This document shows positions 2,865 to 62,333 of a DNA stretch of 64,000 nt, piece by piece; position 1 is the stretch's first letter; every line of letters starts with the position of its first letter. The notes beneath the pieces are model-generated. The model searched no databases. It had not been told where the DNA came from and was given only the letters and a program-made list of their open reading frames with translations. Both the position numbers and the translations under genes were made by a program. The stretch is taken from IMG/VR virus record IMGVR_UViG_2721755676_000001; one strand, 5' to 3'. The DNA comes from a virus. Its lineage: Duplodnaviria > Heunggongvirae > Uroviricota > Caudoviricetes.

Positions 2865-4898
2865 ATGACCCAAGTCGCGAAGAAAATTCTGGTGACGTGC
2901 GCGCTGCCGTACGCTAACGGCTCAATCCACCTCGGCCATATGCTGGAGCACATCCAGGCTGATGTCTGGGTTCGTTACCAGCGAATGCGCGGCCACGAGG
3001 TTAATTTCATCTGTGCCGACGATGCCCACGGTACGCCAATCATGCTGAAAGCACAGCAGCTTGGTATCACACCGGAACAGATGATTGGCGAAATGAGTCA
3101 GGAACATCAGACTGATTTCGCAGGCTTTAACATCAGCTATGACAACTATCACTCGACGCACAGCGAAGAGAACCGTCAGTTGTCCGAGCTTATCTATACT
3201 CGCCTGAAAGAGAACGGTTTTATTAAAAACCGCACCATCTCTCAGCTGTACGACCCGGAAAAAGGCATGTTCCTGCCGGACCGTTTTGTAAAAGGCACAT
3301 GCCCGAAATGTAAAGCGCCGGATCAATACGGCGATAACTGTGAAGTCTGCGGCGCGACATACAGCCCGACGGAACTGATCGAGCCGAAATCAGTGGTTTC
3401 TGGCGCTACACCGGTAATGCGTGATTCCGAACACTTCTTCTTTGATCTGCCTTCTTTCAGCGAAATGTTGCAGGCATGGACCCGCAGCGGTGCGTTGCAG
3501 GAGCAGGTGGCAAACAAAATGCAGGAGTGGTTTGAATCTGGCCTGCAACAGTGGGATATCTCCCGTGACGCACCTTACTTCGGTTTTGAAATTCCGAACG
3601 CACCGGGCAAATACTTCTACGTCTGGCTGGACGCGCCGATTGGCTACATGGGTTCCTTCAAGAATCTGTGCGACAAACGCGGCGACACTACCAGCTTCGA
3701 CGAATACTGGAAGAAAGACTCCACCGCCGAGCTGTACCACTTCATCGGCAAAGATATCGTTTACTTCCACAGCCTGTTCTGGCCTGCCATGCTGGAAGGC
3801 AGCAACTTCCGCAAGCCGACCAACCTGTTTGTTCACGGCTATGTGACGGTGAACGGCGCGAAGATGTCCAAGTCTCGCGGCACCTTTATTAAAGCCAGCA
3901 CCTGGCTGAATCATTTTGACGCCGACAGCCTGCGTTACTACTACACTGCGAAACTCTCTTCGCGCATTGATGATATCGATCTCAACCTGGAAGATTTCGT
4001 TCAGCGTGTGAATGCCGATATCGTTAACAAAGTGGTTAACCTGGCCTCCCGTAATGCAGGCTTTATCAACAAGCGTTTTGACGGCGTGCTGGCAAGCGAA
4101 CTGGCTGACCCGCAACTGTACAAAACCTTTACTGATGCCGCTGAAGTGATTGGCGAAGCATGGGAAAGCCGCGAATTTGGCAAAGCTATCCGTGAAATCA
4201 TGGCACTGGCTGACCTGGCTAACCGCTATGTTGATGAACAGGCTCCGTGGGTGGTGGCAAAGCAGGAAGGACGCGATGCCGATCTGCAGGCGATTTGCTC
4301 TATGGGCATTAACCTGTTCCGCGTGCTGATGACGTACCTGAAACCGGTACTGCCGAAACTGACTGAACGTGCAGAAGCATTCCTGAATACAGAACTGACC
4401 TGGGATGGTATCCAGCAACCGCTGCTGGGCCATAAAGTGAATCCGTTCAAGGCACTGTATAACCGCATCGATATGAAGCAGGTTGAAGCACTGGTGGAAG
4501 CATCCAAAGAAGAAGTGAAAGCCACAGCCGCACCGGTAACTGGCCCACTGGCTGACGACCCGATTCAGGAAACTATCACCTTTGACGACTTCGCCAAAGT
4601 TGACCTGCGCGTGGCGCTGATTGAAAACGCAGAGTTTGTAGAAGGTTCTGACAAACTGCTTCGCCTGACGCTGGATCTCGGTGGTGAAAAGCGTAATGTC
4701 TTCTCAGGCATCCGTTCCGCTTATCCAGATCCACAGGCACTGATTGGTCGTCACACCATTATGGTGGCTAACCTGGCACCACGTAAAATGCGCTTCGGTA
4801 TCTCTGAAGGCATGGTGATGGCTGCTGGCCCCGGCGGGAAAGATATCTTCCTGTTAAGCCCGGATGCTGGTGCTAAACCTGGCCACCAGGTTAAGTAA
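2865..4898 (+). CDS. metG: methionyl-tRNA synthetase
   Basis: 677 aa from the ATG at 2865 ([29 protein letters not shown] motif, KMSKS, zinc knuckle CPKC..C..C, C-terminal tRNA-binding domain); divergent from mrp as in E. coli-type chromosomes. Confidence 0.95.
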
Positions 4899-59100: not shown

Positions 59101-59312
59101 TCGTATTAAGTAAAAGGGAGAAAGAAACGCTTCATGAAATCAGTAAGTGGCCGGAGTTCCCTGAGTACTGGAAGCCTAAAACGCGAGCTAAGTTAGAGCG
59201 TTTAGGGTTGGTTGCAAACGTTTCTGAAACGTGGTGCTCGGCCAACTACCAGTTAACTGATAAAGGGAAAGTATTGCTACAGCAATTAGTAGAATCAGGA
59301 GTGTTAAAATGA
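59097..59312 (+). CDS. small winged-helix-like protein (71 aa)
   Basis: ATGA overlap with ligase; KLERLGLV pattern. Confidence 0.4.
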   Translation: MIVLSKREKETLHEISKWPEFPEYWKPKTRAKLERLGLVANVSETWCSANYQLTDKGKVLLQQLVESGVLK

Positions 59313-59461
59313 TTCCATACATCTCATTAGCTTTTATGGGTGGCTTCCTTATCGGCTTCGGCATCTGTCGTGATTTAATTAAGCAGGAACTTAAAACCAA
59401 AACACTGTGCATCGGAAAGCGTGTGTATCGGGTAGTTCATGAAACAAAGGTTAGAAAATGA
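59309..59461 (+). CDS. small membrane peptide (50 aa)
   Basis: ATGA-coupled ORF with one hydrophobic helix; below the ORF-track cut-off. Confidence 0.3.
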   Translation: MIPYISLAFMGGFLIGFGICRDLIKQELKTKTLCIGKRVYRVVHETKVRK

Positions 59462-59748: not shown

Positions 59749-60138
59749 AAACATATTGATAAGTATTTACTTACTTATCTTTTATGTATAAGATGACTTT
59801 GTTTTCGTTGAGACGCGACTGTTTGAACTTAAATACAAGTGCAAACGAAGAAGTCTATCTGGCAGTAGCCTAATAAGCCAAACACCAGCGAGGTCAGTTT
59901 CCAGCCTCGTTACCGAAATGGGACACACTGAGCGAGTGTGATTGCAGAACGCAGGAGGGAACATGAATGTTCCCTCCGATGAAGTAACAGAATGGGCGGT
60001 TGGTATATTTTCAACTCCATATGACTCCCGGATTCTTAGCCACTGACCGCCCATCCTGTTACGTCATTTTGTTCAATTATGTCGTTTATACTGGGTTAAA
60101 AAGCGGCGACGTAGCCCGGCTGGTATGGTTAGCCAGCA

Positions 60139-60260
60139 CACAACGTTGAGGCCATTACATTTTTATCAATTCTAAGGTTCTATTCACAGAGATACCGGCG
60201 AGCGTTGATATGTAACATGTTGGGCAAACATTCAATCGGAGTAGTGGCCTCAACGTTGTG
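60139..60260. repeat. long inverted repeat: 16-bp perfect arms CACAACGTTGAGGCCA / TGGCCTCAACGTTGTG around about 90 nt
   Basis: Perfect complementarity; related arms at 61087-61164. Confidence 0.5.
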
Positions 60261-60526
60261 AAGACAGGATTGTTGTGTAGGTTTAACCACTGTTGCCATT
60301 GGTGCCTGTTTTCACAACAAATGATTCCATACATCACATTGTATAAATTACAAAGTAGGTGCTGTCCTCAGAAACATCATCTACTTAAAGATTTTGCCTT
60401 CTACTATTGAGCGAAGTCGAAAGCGTCTGGCACTAACGAAAAGTGCAAGTAGCGGTGCGTTTCCTGGCAGAAACTAAACCGTTGCGATTGGCACTGTTGA
60501 GTAATAAATACTGGCAGTGCTGAATT

Positions 60527-60601
60527 GATGGTGTAGCTCAGCGGTAGAGCAGTTGGCTGTTAACCAACTGGTCGGTGGTTCGAATCCACCCACCATCGCC
60601 A
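60527..60601 (+). tRNA. tRNA-Asn (anticodon GTT)
   Basis: Canonical cloverleaf with T-loop TTCGAAT and 3' CCA; sequence differs from chromosomal E. coli tRNA-Asn as recalled. Confidence 0.9.
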
Positions 60602-60606
60602 ATTTA

Positions 60607-60693
60607 GGGGAGTTAGTCCGTAGGGGCAGCGGAGTAGACTGTAAATCTACTGTCATGGCGACTCGGGTGGTTCGACTCCATCACTCCCCACCA
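60607..60693 (+). tRNA. tRNA-Tyr (anticodon GTA)
   Basis: Class II tRNA with long variable arm, anticodon loop CTGTAAA, 3' CCA. Confidence 0.85.
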
Positions 60694-60697
60694 AATT

Positions 60698-60773
60698 GCC
60701 GGTTTAGCTCAGTTGGTAGAGCGCCTGCCTTGTAAGCAGGATGTCAGCGGTTCGAGTCCGCTAACCGGCACCA
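60698..60773 (+). tRNA. tRNA-Thr (anticodon TGT)
   Basis: Perfect cloverleaf with anticodon loop CTTGTAA, T-loop TTCGAGT, 3' CCA. Confidence 0.9.
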
Positions 60774-60845
60774 ATACAACGATAAGATCATTACGGTTAA
60801 TCGTCGTTCATGTGCACAATGACTGGTCGAAAGGTAGTGATCTTA

Positions 60846-60995
60846 CCGTTGTGGTGGATTCGCAGACTGATGCGATAGCTTTCTTGGATGTTAGGGAAAT
60901 GCGGCCGCAAATCTTCCCTTTCGCGAGCGGTGATCGTCCGTAGTCCTAATTGGCTGCACCGTATGCCGGAGATTCAGTACCGGCCACCACAACGG
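60846..60995 (+). ncRNA. structured RNA-like element between tRNA-Thr and tRNA-Ser (function unknown)
   Basis: 12-bp closing stem CCGTTGTGGTGG/CCACCACAACGG around internal hairpins; ends 2 nt before tRNA-Ser; no canonical tRNA fold. Confidence 0.3.
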
Positions 60996-60997
60996 CC

Positions 60998-61084
60998 GGA
61001 GAGTAGGGAGCATGGTGCTCAAGCGGTCTTGAAAACCGTCCCATTGCGCAAGCGATGATGGTTCGATTCCATTACTCTCCGCCA
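60998..61084 (+). tRNA. tRNA-Ser (anticodon TGA)
   Basis: Class II tRNA with 3-bp D stem, long variable arm, anticodon loop CTTGAAA, 3' CCA. Confidence 0.85.
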
Positions 61085-61086
61085 GA

Positions 61087-61164
61087 CACAGCGTTGAGCG
61101 GTTTGGCCTTTTAATCACCCAGATTAAGACTCCGCTAACATAAACCAGACCGCTCAACGCTGTG
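61087..61164. repeat. long inverted repeat: 16-bp perfect arms CACAGCGTTGAGCGGT / ACCGCTCAACGCTGTG around 46 nt
   Basis: Starts 2 nt after tRNA-Ser; arms resemble those at 60139-60260. Confidence 0.5.
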
Positions 61165-61241
61165 ATAGACAATTACGGCAGACGTTCTTAACCATAGCTT
61201 GCTAACATCCTAGCAACACTTTTTTCAGCGCAAAATTCAAA

Positions 61242-61260
61242 GGGGCTTCGGCCCCTTTTT
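61242..61260. terminator. bidirectional intrinsic terminator
   Basis: GGGGC ttcg GCCCC with A-run upstream and T5 downstream; abuts the stop of the minus-strand gene at 61262. Confidence 0.65.
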
Positions 61261-61261
61261 G

Positions 61262-62158
61262 TTAATGATTATCTAGGTATGCTATTAACTCATTTTTAAT
61301 GATAAGTGAATATTCTAAAATCTCACCTAGTAAATATTCTGCTTTTTTAAAATGCCAACCCATATAGCCTAATTTTTCTGAAGGTCCTTCTAACAACATT
61401 ATAATATCGCTGTCTTTCTCTTTGGCAATGTATTGTCTTATTTCTATCTCAAAATTATTTCTTGTCTTCCCACTTATTGATGATTCATCCAAAACTTTAG
61501 TTATAAACTTTTCCGTGTCGATGAACTTTCCTGCATTATGCACAATTGTATGTCTTAGCAGCTCAATTAAAGTGATCTCGAAACGATAGTTTTTACCTAT
61601 CTTGTTATTTATTTCTACGTCTCTAAAATTGGGTAACTTTCTTCTAAATACTTTCAGGATTTTTTTTGGTGCTTTATTATTTCTTTTTATCGCATTGTAG
61701 TAGGTTTCCATGTCTCCATTTTGTTCGATCTGAACATTTTTAAATTCACTAGGTTGCCAAAAATGGTCATGAATACTCACTGTATGGGCATATATTTTCT
61801 TAATATAGTCTTCAAACAATTCATATGCTTCGGTTATAACCCATTGATACTGTTTATTTTTTAACACTTCACATAACTTTATCTTCTCTGAAAGATCTGT
61901 TCTAGTATGCCCAATTCCAAATGTTGAACCTGTATATGGATTTGAGCATGTATGGTTTGCTAACGTTGTCCCGCATGTTAATGGGAAAGTATTATTAGCA
62001 TCTAGATTTTGTACGTTTTCAAGTGTATGCTTAAATCGCTTTATGTTGTCTTTCGTTGTAACATTTATATGACCTAACAAGTCACAACGTAAAATTATTT
62101 CATTTCTTAAATCAGTGAATATTTTTTCGACAAAAGAACCTGATGGGTTTTCAATCAT
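61262..62158 (-). CDS. AT-rich hypothetical protein with HEPN-like Rx4H motif (possible abortive-infection-type protein)
   Basis: 298 aa, about 30% GC versus about 50% for flanks; RHTIVH fits R-x4-6-H; stand-alone gene between terminators. Confidence 0.55.
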   Translation of the reverse strand: MIENPSGSFVEKIFTDLRNEIILRCDLLGHINVTTKDNIKRFKHTLENVQNLDANNTFPLTCGTTLANHTCSNPYTGSTFGIGHTRTDLSEKIKLCEVLKNKQYQWVITEAYELFEDYIKKIYAHTVSIHDHFWQPSEFKNVQIEQNGDMETYYNAIKRNNKAPKKILKVFRRKLPNFRDVEINNKIGKNYRFEITLIELLRHTIVHNAGKFIDTEKFITKVLDESSISGKTRNNFEIEIRQYIAKEKDSDIIMLLEGPSEKLGYMGWHFKKAEYLLGEILEYSLIIKNELIAYLDNH

Positions 62159-62333
62159 CTAAACCTCTACGAAAATCTTACCTATAAGACAGTCCTTAAT
62201 GTAATCTGTTTTCTCCACTACTTCAAATTACCTCACAATCTATTGATAGGTGACTACCTACTTACATACAAAGTTGATTTATAGTATAGTCCCTCTGTTG
62301 CGTATTAGTATTTTAAAAGGCATCTGTTAAGTT

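Follow-up and report, generated by a model that had tools for sequence, protein, structure and literature searches.

What is the structured segment that separates two of the transfer RNA (tRNA) genes in the phage record IMGVR_UViG_2721755676_000001, and do the long inverted repeats around these genes mark a mobile unit? In the 64,000-nucleotide (nt) stretch analysed here (the window), a 150-nt segment lies between tRNA-Thr and tRNA-Ser; a preliminary description, made from the letters alone, had likened it to the small stable RNAs of T4-type tRNA clusters and had offered the repeats as processing sites or as marks of a tRNA cassette. The segment, termed element B (60846-60995, + strand), encodes a structured RNA, one of a large family found in many phages of Proteobacteria, beside tRNAs or ahead of lysis genes; the object of interest at this locus is this widespread, unannotated family of tRNA-shaped RNAs together with an associated hairpin family (hairpin A), not a mobile tRNA cassette. 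The window represents an SSU5-type phage-plasmid; the region has 98% identity to Escherichia phage CMS-2020a and lies close to phage Cyrano, two SSU5-type phage-plasmids of ~108 kb each, and parts of the tRNA cluster are common to the P1-like phages P7 and D6 and to N4-like phages.

Element B and its family

The segment is closed, as had been claimed, by a perfect 12-bp stem (CCGTTGTGGTGG / CCACCACAACGG, at 60846-60857 / 60984-60995). Its parts in the window are:

60846-60995, + strand: element B, a structured RNA of tRNA-like appearance (covariance model R1, covariation)
60848-60856 / 60985-60993: closing stem, extendable to 12 bp (9-12 bp in the window)
60857-60859: linker GAT (family consensus AAU)
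60860-60875: hairpin 1 (hp1), UCGC AGACUGAU GCGA
60876-60964: variable centre
60965-60984: hairpin 2 (hp2), GCCGG AGAUUCAGUA CCGGC
60866-60870 with 60974-60978: loop-loop pairing, ACUGA with UCAGU

The 150-nt segment folds at -55.8 kcal/mol (z-score -2.4; 4 of 200 shuffles as good), and because folding energy by itself is weak, the decisive evidence for its structure is comparative. The family was collected by BLAST with the spacer and then by scanning IMG/VR for two patterns; the first was tied to the 5' end, the second to the 3' hairpin alone, and each recovered at least 120 loci. With BLAST, phages of Escherichia, Klebsiella, Salmonella and Erwinia (lambdoid, N4-like, Jedunavirus and other siphoviral types) match the spacer at its two ends and not in its centre, and the spacer ends are also matched in 217 plasmid records. 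A total of 146 distinct elements with 37 unrelated closing-stem sequences were extracted. The consensus comprises, in its 5' part, the closing stem, the linker AAU (128 of the 146 elements) and hp1 (GCGC stem, AGGCUGAU loop), and, in its 3' part, hp2 (GCCGG stem, AGAUCAGCA loop), which abuts the 3' strand of the closing stem with zero spacer; between the two hairpins lies a hypervariable centre of 12-190 nt (one outlier of 273). The core consists of a 7-bp closing stem, a 5-bp hp2 hairpin, and a 4-bp hp1 hairpin with an 8-nt loop.

The covariation is strong in two separate sets. In alignment A1 (54 sequences), 95.0% of the cells are paired, versus 29-52% when the partners are slid; both partners vary in 17 of the 24 pairs, and every observed measure exceeds what any of 500 shuffles attains. 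A second set (87 distinct sequences, mostly non-enteric) gives 93.6% paired cells versus 33-46% when slid, and a covariation score of 0.474 versus 0.119. Pairing is 92-100% for the inner seven closing pairs of either set and drops to 45-69% at pairs 8 and 9. The near-invariant loops of hp1 and hp2 form a loop-loop helix of 6 bp (GCUGAU with AUCAGC, 98.5% paired); its variable position is G-C in 45, G.U in seven and A-U in two of the 54 sequences, and among 91 enteric copies it is G-C in 74, G.U in 10, A-U in five and A.C in two. For 86 loci fetched by the 17-nt hp2 motif alone, model R1 gives 84 hits at E<=1.5e-8, i.e. anchoring on hp2 alone almost always recovers hp1 plus a complementary closing stem. 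The sole copy that R1 detects in the window (60848-60993, 66.2 bits, E about 1e-17) has both hairpins, complementary loops, a stem of at least 7 bp abutting hp2 and a 3-nt linker.

For the calling of tRNAs, ARAGORN was used together with Rfam models at gathering threshold and at E<=10. Within 60774-60997 no tRNA is called by ARAGORN and no Rfam tRNA match is found even at E<=10. Window B has no anticodon arm, its hp2 loop of 9-10 nt is without the UUCRA motif, and its tail reads ACGG, not NCCA. The covariance-model search that had been proposed as a check returned no Rfam 15 family at threshold over the element, while three of the tRNAs pass; C4, transfer-messenger RNA (tmRNA), YrlA, ribozymes and the other Rfam 15 families stay below gathering threshold on the window element and on ten short-copy loci, and the best unrelated scores on element B are far under the gathering scores. 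The initial view of a structured non-tRNA RNA in the 150-nt segment is thus upheld by the comparative structure and by the lack of a tRNA call.

The last 150 nt of the spacers between tRNA-Thr and tRNA-Ser in P7 and D6 are 96-98% identical to 60846-60995 of the window. The window centre and that of BUCT_49532 share about 75% identity, and a compensated stem in these two centres (GGGAA/UUCCC versus AGCGA/UCGCU) surrounds a conserved loop; further, several copies with unlike centres are found within single phages (SCU-175, P7/D6). Because of this compensated conservation and of the unlike centres in one phage, the variable centre looks functional. Minimal copies of 67-70 nt, nearly without a centre, also exist. 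A 58-nt centreless variant with an hp2-like loop (AGAUAAGCA) is found in P7, D6 and the Klebsiella relatives (13-19.5 bits), and P7 and D6 carry an extra, diverged B-like element past tRNA-Ser (22-25 bits); the coordinates of these 58-nt or diverged copies are 3245-3364 and 2668-2725 in locus L003, 3264-3388 in locus L004, and 2416-2508 in locus L338.

Strand, genomic setting and spread of element B

Of the elements, 40 have a tRNA within 1 kb, and every one of these is encoded on the strand of its nearest tRNA; the next tRNA begins 3-10 nt past B in 15 loci, and 2 nt past it in the window. In 51 closing stems that had not been selected for pairing, 304 Watson-Crick, 18 G.U, 6 A.C and 29 other combinations were counted; G.U exceeds A.C (18 versus 6, p=0.023), and the 5' strand of these stems is 85% G+U. 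Phage HC6 carries B in a gap between oppositely oriented genes, followed by tRNA-Ile, and at the ends of this gap a promoter-like TTGACA...TAGATT and a terminator-like hairpin can be read. The co-orientation, the excess of G.U over A.C and the layout of the HC6 gap favour B as an RNA read from the + strand.

The genes upstream of B on the same strand encode Q antiterminators of two unrelated families (PF06530, median distance 171 nt; PF03589, 501 nt) and NinG, and those downstream on the same strand encode holin (244 nt), lysozyme and Rz. B follows a CI-type repressor gene in 20 elements, adjoins HNH endonuclease genes in eight, and is also located inside tRNA arrays; the Q, holin, lysozyme, Rz and CI neighbours are co-directional with B. 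All of these settings are untranslated, transcribed 'moron' positions. A 41-mer from the enteric junction is present in 628 of 5,426 complete E. coli genomes, and no feature is annotated under it in RefSeq among the 25 matches listed; in one E. coli example B lies between the genes for an antitermination protein and a class II holin, and in another between XRE/ParA genes and yfdPQR. Phage lambda carries a hairpin A directly past the terminator tR', followed by a degenerate B (stem GTTGTGCTG...CAGCACAAC) without the kissing hairpins. In E. coli K-12, the CPS-53 remnant is without element B, and K-12 transcriptomes are therefore uninformative on this element.

A wider spread across phyla, as suggested by a search of 185,579 genomes with the 18-nt hp1 core, was dropped, since the matches were mostly chance matches in GC-rich coding sequence. 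Among the matches listed in that scan, a strict detector finds complete elements in 26 of 120, and those with a readable organism are all proteobacterial, except for one Desulfocarbo contig. The hp1 core occurs by chance inside conserved coding sequence of Xanthomonadales/Lysobacterales (L217-L267 and others) and in other GC-rich genes, so pattern-only searches overcount the family. On three viral contigs, weak matches to the Rfam model for permuted tmRNA (about 26 bits, gathering score 47) were observed upstream of B (L028, 958-1012; L038, 1003-1110, - strand; L061, 324-430).

Hairpins, tRNA genes and the RNA operon

The region of ~59,765-61,262 is a non-coding RNA operon of ~1.5 kb with a candidate promoter, a conserved structured leader, tRNAs and a terminator. 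It is read as an RNA-only operon because no open reading frame (ORF) exceeds 93 codons in 59749-61262 and because the insertions and deletions that separate the relatives across the region are not multiples of three. The preliminary description had not noticed the hairpins at 59954-59977, 59979-60067 and 60771-60857, nor the terminator. The features in this region, other than element B, are:

59754-59795, + strand: candidate promoter (TTTACT, 17 nt, TAAGAT) in a conserved block; a 24-nt repeat that resembles an operator overlaps it
59800-59953, + strand: 5' leader domain, near-invariant among SSU5-type elements
59954-59977, + strand: leader hairpin with an 11-bp stem, four pairs changed on both sides in relatives
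59979-60067, + strand: leader hairpin with 22-nt arms and a variable loop (fold z-score -5.1)
60139-60260, + strand: upstream A-family hairpin, arms CACAACGTTGAGGCCATTAC / GTAGTGGCCTCAACGTTGTG, 82-nt loop (fold z-score -6.7)
60255-60318, + strand: short stem GTTGTGAAGACAGG...CCTGTTTTCACAAC
60527-60601, + strand: tRNA-Asn (GTT), in all SSU5-type relatives examined
60607-60693, + strand: tRNA-Tyr (GTA), variable member of the cluster (ARAGORN, Rfam)
60698-60773, + strand: tRNA-Thr (TGT) (ARAGORN, Rfam)
60771-60857, + strand: hairpin A of the A+B module, a third related hairpin (fold z-score -4.8)
60998-61084, + strand: tRNA-Ser (TGA) with an atypical D arm, starting 2 nt past element B
61087-61164, + strand: downstream A-family hairpin, arms CACAGCGTTGAGCGGTTTGG / CCAGACCGCTCAACGCTGTG (fold z-score -9.7)
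61239-61258, + strand: intrinsic terminator AAAGGGGCTTCGGCCCCTTT followed by a T-run, end of the RNA operon, conserved in Cyrano and KPC53

Both of the inverted repeats that had been described as perfect 16-bp repeats exist, but each has arms of 20 nt that form 19 Watson-Crick pairs and a single U.G pair (60139-60158/60241-60260 upstream; 61087-61106/61145-61164 downstream); for neither does any of 200 shuffles fold as well, and the downstream hairpin starts 2 nt past the CCA of tRNA-Ser. The arms are indeed related to each other: the motif CACARCGTTGAG occurs four times in the window, once per arm, against 0.03 expected. The CCA of tRNA-Thr is where the third hairpin (60771-60857) starts; the 3' arm of this hairpin (CCGTTGTGG) also serves in the closing stem of B, and a hairpin scan of the 64 kb gave no further hairpin of A type. 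A hairpin A lies ahead of 68 of 79 enteric B elements, its 3' arm ending in GUUGUG, i.e. in the first bases of the B stem, and 44 different 5' arms of hairpin A are each complementary to their partner.

In the upstream hairpin, compensatory changes are seen in SSU5 and the Klebsiella relatives (GAGGCC/GGCCUC to GAGACC/GGUCUC; AUUAC/GUAGU to ACUGG/CCAGU), and the downstream hairpin is present in Cyrano, SCU-175 and the Klebsiella relatives and degenerate in SSU5. Counted from its inner end, the conserved arm has the U.G wobble at pair four in the three window hairpins and in that of lambda, and the wobble would read A.C on the opposite strand; in the relatives examined, A hairpins start 0-2 nt past a tRNA CCA end, or past a terminator. 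The compensatory changes, the position of the wobble and the start 0-2 nt past CCA ends favour an action of the A hairpins at the RNA level. As side observations, the 3' arm of hairpin A generally reads UGCUCUUU(CC)GUUGUG (in lambda, L336 1048-1063), of which UGCUCUUU equals the rrn boxA core, the G/U-rich stretch behind it recalling boxC; T-arm-like hairpins (CAGAGTTCGACTCTCTG, GGGTTCGACTCCC) are found in the hairpin-A loops of some relatives (L002, about 2853-2939; L011); and an N4-like locus (L006, 2660-3270) contains, besides one 'tRNA-???' call, several fragments that look like tRNAs and have good T-arms but are not called by ARAGORN.

Comparison of the cluster across relatives, as had been suggested, revealed cassette-like variation of tRNA-Tyr and of the A+B module, which is not delimited by the flanking repeat pair; SCU-175 and P7/D6 have additional modules. 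Cyrano has tRNA-Asn, tRNA-Thr, 8 nt (ACACAATT) and tRNA-Ser, and is without tRNA-Tyr and the 224-nt Thr-Ser spacer; this spacing is about 490 nt in SCU-175 and 446-465 nt in P7 and D6, where, as in SCU-175, the loop of hairpin A (60795-60833) is exchanged for 265-330 nt with the arms unchanged. The Klebsiella relatives have the order tRNA-Asn, hairpin A, the 58-nt centreless B-like variant, tRNA-Ser, a homologue of the downstream hairpin, and terminator. Mosaic breakpoints coincide with hairpin arms (60792, 60836, 61107, 61164), and the similarity to SCU-175 stops exactly at 61164.

The idea that the two repeats bracket a mobile tRNA cassette fails at the upstream repeat, which is located ~270 nt before the first tRNA and inside the conserved leader; since SSU5 keeps this leader with tRNA-Asn alone, the repeat is a part of the leader and not a cassette end. 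Of the two roles offered for the repeats, processing sites are better supported, given the RNA-level evidence, and a mobile cassette with the two repeats as its borders is not supported. The filled site of the A+B module is flanked by direct (C/T)ACAAC repeats, and the empty site in Cyrano has a single ACACAA. The module reads CACAAC...GUUGUG...CACAAC, so that its ends are short direct repeats; because the RNA design itself yields these repeats, precise loss, as in Cyrano, may proceed without a dedicated recombinase. The features of a miniature inverted-repeat transposable element (MITE) are missing: the ends of B are complementary, with 37-51 different stem sequences, and the window holds one copy. 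The hairpin ends CACAAC...GTTGTG have only AAC...GTT in common with the attC cores RYYYAAC...GTTRRRY, which in integrons come with extrahelical bases. No transposase is found among the gene clusters recurring beside B, and no integron integrase among the B neighbours; Cyrano has a phage integrase gene 1.8 kb away.

The four tRNAs that had been reported within 560 bp are confirmed: ARAGORN calls exactly four, all on the + strand and spanning 558 bp. The Rfam tRNA model is over threshold for tRNA-Asn, tRNA-Tyr and tRNA-Thr, and not for tRNA-Ser, for which the best model is tRNA-Sec (46.6 bits, gathering score 47); this oddity apparently derives from a long D stem with a 4-nt loop, and this gene was also flagged by the annotators of D6. 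What precedes tRNA-Ser in most relatives is element B or a B-like variant. The tRNA-Tyr gene is found in the window and in SCU-175 and is missing from Cyrano, P7 and D6; the CCA-A(T)TT junctions on its flanks could mediate gain or loss through short homology.

The promoter-like block TTTACT/TAAGAT itself lies at about 59767-59795, and the block GTATTTACTTA...TA(A/T)GAT is kept in SSU5, pJN2-26 and KPC53. It scores 8 of 12 consensus matches and is a candidate promoter only, because this is under the cut-off of the consensus scanner. A 24-nt direct repeat (TATTGATAAGTATTTACTTACTTA / TATTGATAGGTGACTACCTACTTA) is located at 59754-59777 and 62241-62264, and its copy over the candidate promoter could be an operator; the homologous tRNA operon of P7 is annotated as being under C1 operator control. 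SSU5 and two Klebsiella elements share the leader of 750 nt that precedes tRNA-Asn, with hardly any change over the first ~220 nt. In 59800-59953, almost all alignment columns are identical across the E. coli, Salmonella and Klebsiella relatives, against an overall identity of 81-84% to these SSU5-type relatives; no conserved ORF and no Rfam family match is found there, helices are predicted with too little variation for testing them, and this part may be a further conserved RNA domain or a regulatory region. The arms of the hairpin at 59979-60067 show alternation of G-C and G.U in relatives and are otherwise conserved, and the three leader hairpins (59954-59977, 59979-60067, 60139-60260) are maintained through compensatory or wobble changes.

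The short stem at 60255-60318 has GTTGTG in common with the preceding hairpin, which is a B-like arrangement without the kissing hairpins; its counterpart in the Klebsiella relatives, as read from the alignment, has 13 bp of different sequence. A 22-nt direct repeat, AAATGATTCCATACATC(T/A)CATT, is present at 59307-59328 and, in the leader, at 60319-60340; SSU5 and the Klebsiella relatives keep the core of the leader copy, AAATGATTCC.TACATC, nearly unchanged. Directly past the operon terminator, a 298-amino-acid ORF (61262-62158, - strand) is located in an island of 31-33% GC; its sole match is phrog_35492 (unknown function), with no match in Pfam or PADLOC, and as Cyrano has other genes at this place, it looks like a variable 'moron' slot.

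Element B as a putative tRNA-mimicking scaffold

The core of element B, as deduced from its alignments, has the geometry of the upper half of a tRNA. The 7-bp closing stem would correspond to the acceptor stem, stacked without spacer on the 5-bp hp2 in the position of the T arm; the 4-bp hp1, past the 3-nt AAU linker, would take the position of the D arm; the loop-loop helix of six Watson-Crick pairs would replace the contact between D-loop and T-loop; and the lineage-specific insert would sit where an anticodon arm is expected. With a probability of about one half, we regard B as a tRNA-mimicking scaffold RNA that is excised by tRNA-processing enzymes, is stable, and acts in trans. B would be transcribed within the tRNA transcript and cut out by the tRNA-processing enzymes of the host. 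RNase P, in trimming the 5' end of tRNA-Ser 2 nt farther on, would set the 3' end of B, and the tRNA-like core plus cleavage in the preceding hairpin A would set its 5' end. In the resulting small RNA, the core would be the scaffold for processing and stability and the variable centre the specific part, and the long CACAAC...GUUGUG hairpins would be RNA-level punctuation or processing stems right after tRNA 3' ends.

Several observations weigh against this proposal. An encoded NCCA is present in just nine of about 66 distinct tails, and many closing stems are longer than 7 bp, up to 21 bp, which is unlike a canonical RNase P substrate. Across the family, the hp2 loop of 9-10 nt is without the T-loop consensus, and the Rfam models for tRNA, tmRNA, YrlA and C4 fail. 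About three quarters of the elements are without a tRNA inside the fetched locus. A loop helix of six Watson-Crick pairs between short neighbouring hairpins is unlike the elbow of tRNA, so that the three-dimensional likeness is a predicted one, and processing by RNase P is what we infer from geometry; the geometry that bears on RNase P or RNase III comprises a 7+5 bp stack in B and stems of about 20 bp in the hairpins. The window centre is without a BLAST-detectable complement in the chromosomes of 5,426 E. coli genomes and matches phage-plasmids only; an antisense target is therefore not evident.

Among known RNAs, T4 rnaC (species 1) and rnaD (species 2) come closest: they are, like B, small non-tRNA RNAs in a phage tRNA array, on the same strand and a few nt from a tRNA, and rnaC, with a canonical T-arm followed by an acceptor-like 3' strand, is also tRNA-like with a large insertion. 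The likeness to the T4 stable RNAs drawn in the preliminary description thus holds for the arrangement within a tRNA cluster and does not extend to homology in sequence or structure: with filters off, T4 69500-74000 contains nothing that R1 detects at E<=1. Unlike rnaC and rnaD, B has a 6-bp Watson-Crick loop-loop helix for the D-loop/T-loop contact and a hypervariable centre, and it is also found far from tRNAs, between Q and holin and after cI. To our knowledge, the function of rnaC and rnaD is still unknown.

The c4 antisense RNA of P1 and P7 is likewise a small structured phage RNA. It is excised from a longer transcript, its precursor being an RNase P substrate via a tRNA-like fold, and its loops carry the specificity. 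Excision of B would be comparable; however, B in P7 and D6 is located at the trn-ban operon and not at the immI locus of c4, gives no match to the Rfam C4 model, and has two conserved loops that pair with each other, whereas those of c4 pair with an mRNA target. With tRNA, tmRNA and YrlA, B shares an end stem of 7 bp that stacks directly on a hairpin of 5 bp, a short linker leading to a second hairpin (4 bp, 8-nt loop starting with A), and a loop-loop 'elbow' closure, and tmRNA, like B, has an insert at the anticodon position; unlike these domains, B has no T-loop consensus, no conserved CCA and no anticodon arm, and the topology of YrlA is reversed relative to B. Junctions of the purine-riboswitch type also combine a closing helix of variable sequence with two hairpins whose conserved loops pair mutually, but B differs in its hypervariable inter-hairpin strand, in having no conserved ligand pocket, and in not being placed as a 5' leader of one gene class. 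In the synthetic 'tRNA scaffold' of Ponchon and Dardel, a foreign RNA reportedly replaces the anticodon arm and is processed and stabilised by the cell; B appears to resemble a natural version of this design, though the synthetic frame, with its T and D loops, is a genuine tRNA.

Tentatively, B may instead be a cis-acting RNA that punctuates, stabilises or directs the cleavage of long phage transcripts, its centres being tolerated expansions. Such a role would agree with its constant location inside longer transcripts, in untranslated gaps (Q to holin, after CI, tRNA arrays), with the 67-70-nt copies that almost lack a centre, with hairpins that adjoin tRNA ends and terminators, and with lambda, which retains hairpin A and has lost the kissing hairpins; centres that are kept with compensation within sub-lineages, multiple copies with unlike centres in one phage, and two loops that are near-invariant across very different phages, suggesting a specific partner, speak against it. 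We consider it unlikely that the repeats and the A+B module are DNA-level elements, i.e. recombination sites or a MITE- or attC-like cassette whose structures are by-products, although the presence or absence of the module and of tRNA-Tyr, the direct repeats at the filled site set against the single ACACAA in Cyrano, the mosaic breakpoints at hairpin arms and the HNH endonuclease genes beside eight elements would fit. The flanks of B are complementary, not direct, and the diversity of its stems indicates an evolving RNA helix, not recent transposition; G.U exceeds A.C, the U.G wobble recurs at the equivalent position in the four A hairpins examined, and B follows the direction of transcription without exception. 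Genes for a transposase or an integron-type integrase do not recur beside B, and the CACAAC repeats follow from the RNA design, a deletion through short homology needing no recombinase.

A further alternative, a processive antitermination or anti-Rho RNA that acts on RNA polymerase like HK022 put or rrn boxA, would explain the position just past the tR' terminator and ahead of the late genes, and the occurrence of the boxA core string in the 3' arm of hairpin A; Rho would also have access to a 1.5-kb operon that encodes only RNA. This, too, we hold to be improbable, as the boxA-like string is base-paired within hairpin A, a B at the distal end of tRNA arrays or after cI would make little sense, Q-modified polymerase is already terminator-resistant, and the closing stem is formed by distant strands with up to 190 nt between them, which is not put-like. 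Phage ribozymes are often found next to tRNAs, and the compact junction, the loop-loop contact and the few invariant unpaired purines (AAU, AG, AG..A) recall a small self-cleaving ribozyme that processes the transcript; this is very unlikely, for no Rfam ribozyme model matches even at E<=10, the loop-loop helix explains nearly all of the invariant nucleotides, and the hp1-hp2 junction accepts 12-190 nt of any sequence. A decayed tRNA gene, i.e. a functionless pseudogene with an insertion, is scarcely credible and is largely refuted by the pattern of conservation: the location in a tRNA array, the cloverleaf-like topology and the T-arm-like fragments in the hairpin-A loops of some relatives suggest it, but strong covariation and near-invariant loops indicate purifying selection, the element is spread over lambdoid, P1-like, SSU5-like, N4-like and siphoviral genomes and 628 E. 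coli genomes, and ARAGORN and Rfam find no leftover tRNA signal.

No description of element B was found in the searchable literature with exact sequences and keywords. The family may be listed, unnamed, in a 2023 catalogue of 8,495 phage RNA candidates; a preprint on 'Pas sRNA' was discarded as a match, since it concerns different Hfq-type small RNAs near tail genes. If the reading of B as a tRNA-mimicking, trans-acting scaffold RNA is extended, B could represent a natural 'tRNA scaffold' class of phage small RNAs that are excised and stable in any transcript, carry interchangeable cargo, and act in trans on factors of the host or of rival phages; we regard this wider proposal as speculative and doubtful. 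Members of such a class might, for example, titrate immunity nucleases or toxins that bind tRNA, as decoys or sponges, or might carry a regulatory or an aptamer domain, and phages would shuffle such RNA 'morons' together with tRNAs.

The places that element B occupies are classic for 'morons'; one of them is the much-studied interval from Q to the lysis genes, in which lambda keeps a remnant. Model R1 together with the motif permits annotation of the family and mining of the variable centres for targets. If the reading is true, a conserved and easily recognised RNA gene has been overlooked in the genomes covered by this analysis, among them about 12% of complete E. coli genomes, P7/D6, SSU5-type phage-plasmids, N4-like and siphoviral phages and many proteobacterial prophages. 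It would then provide a sequence-defined handle on an old puzzle, the purpose of non-tRNA stable RNAs in phage tRNA clusters, and would be a natural example of RNA scaffolding through tRNA mimicry.

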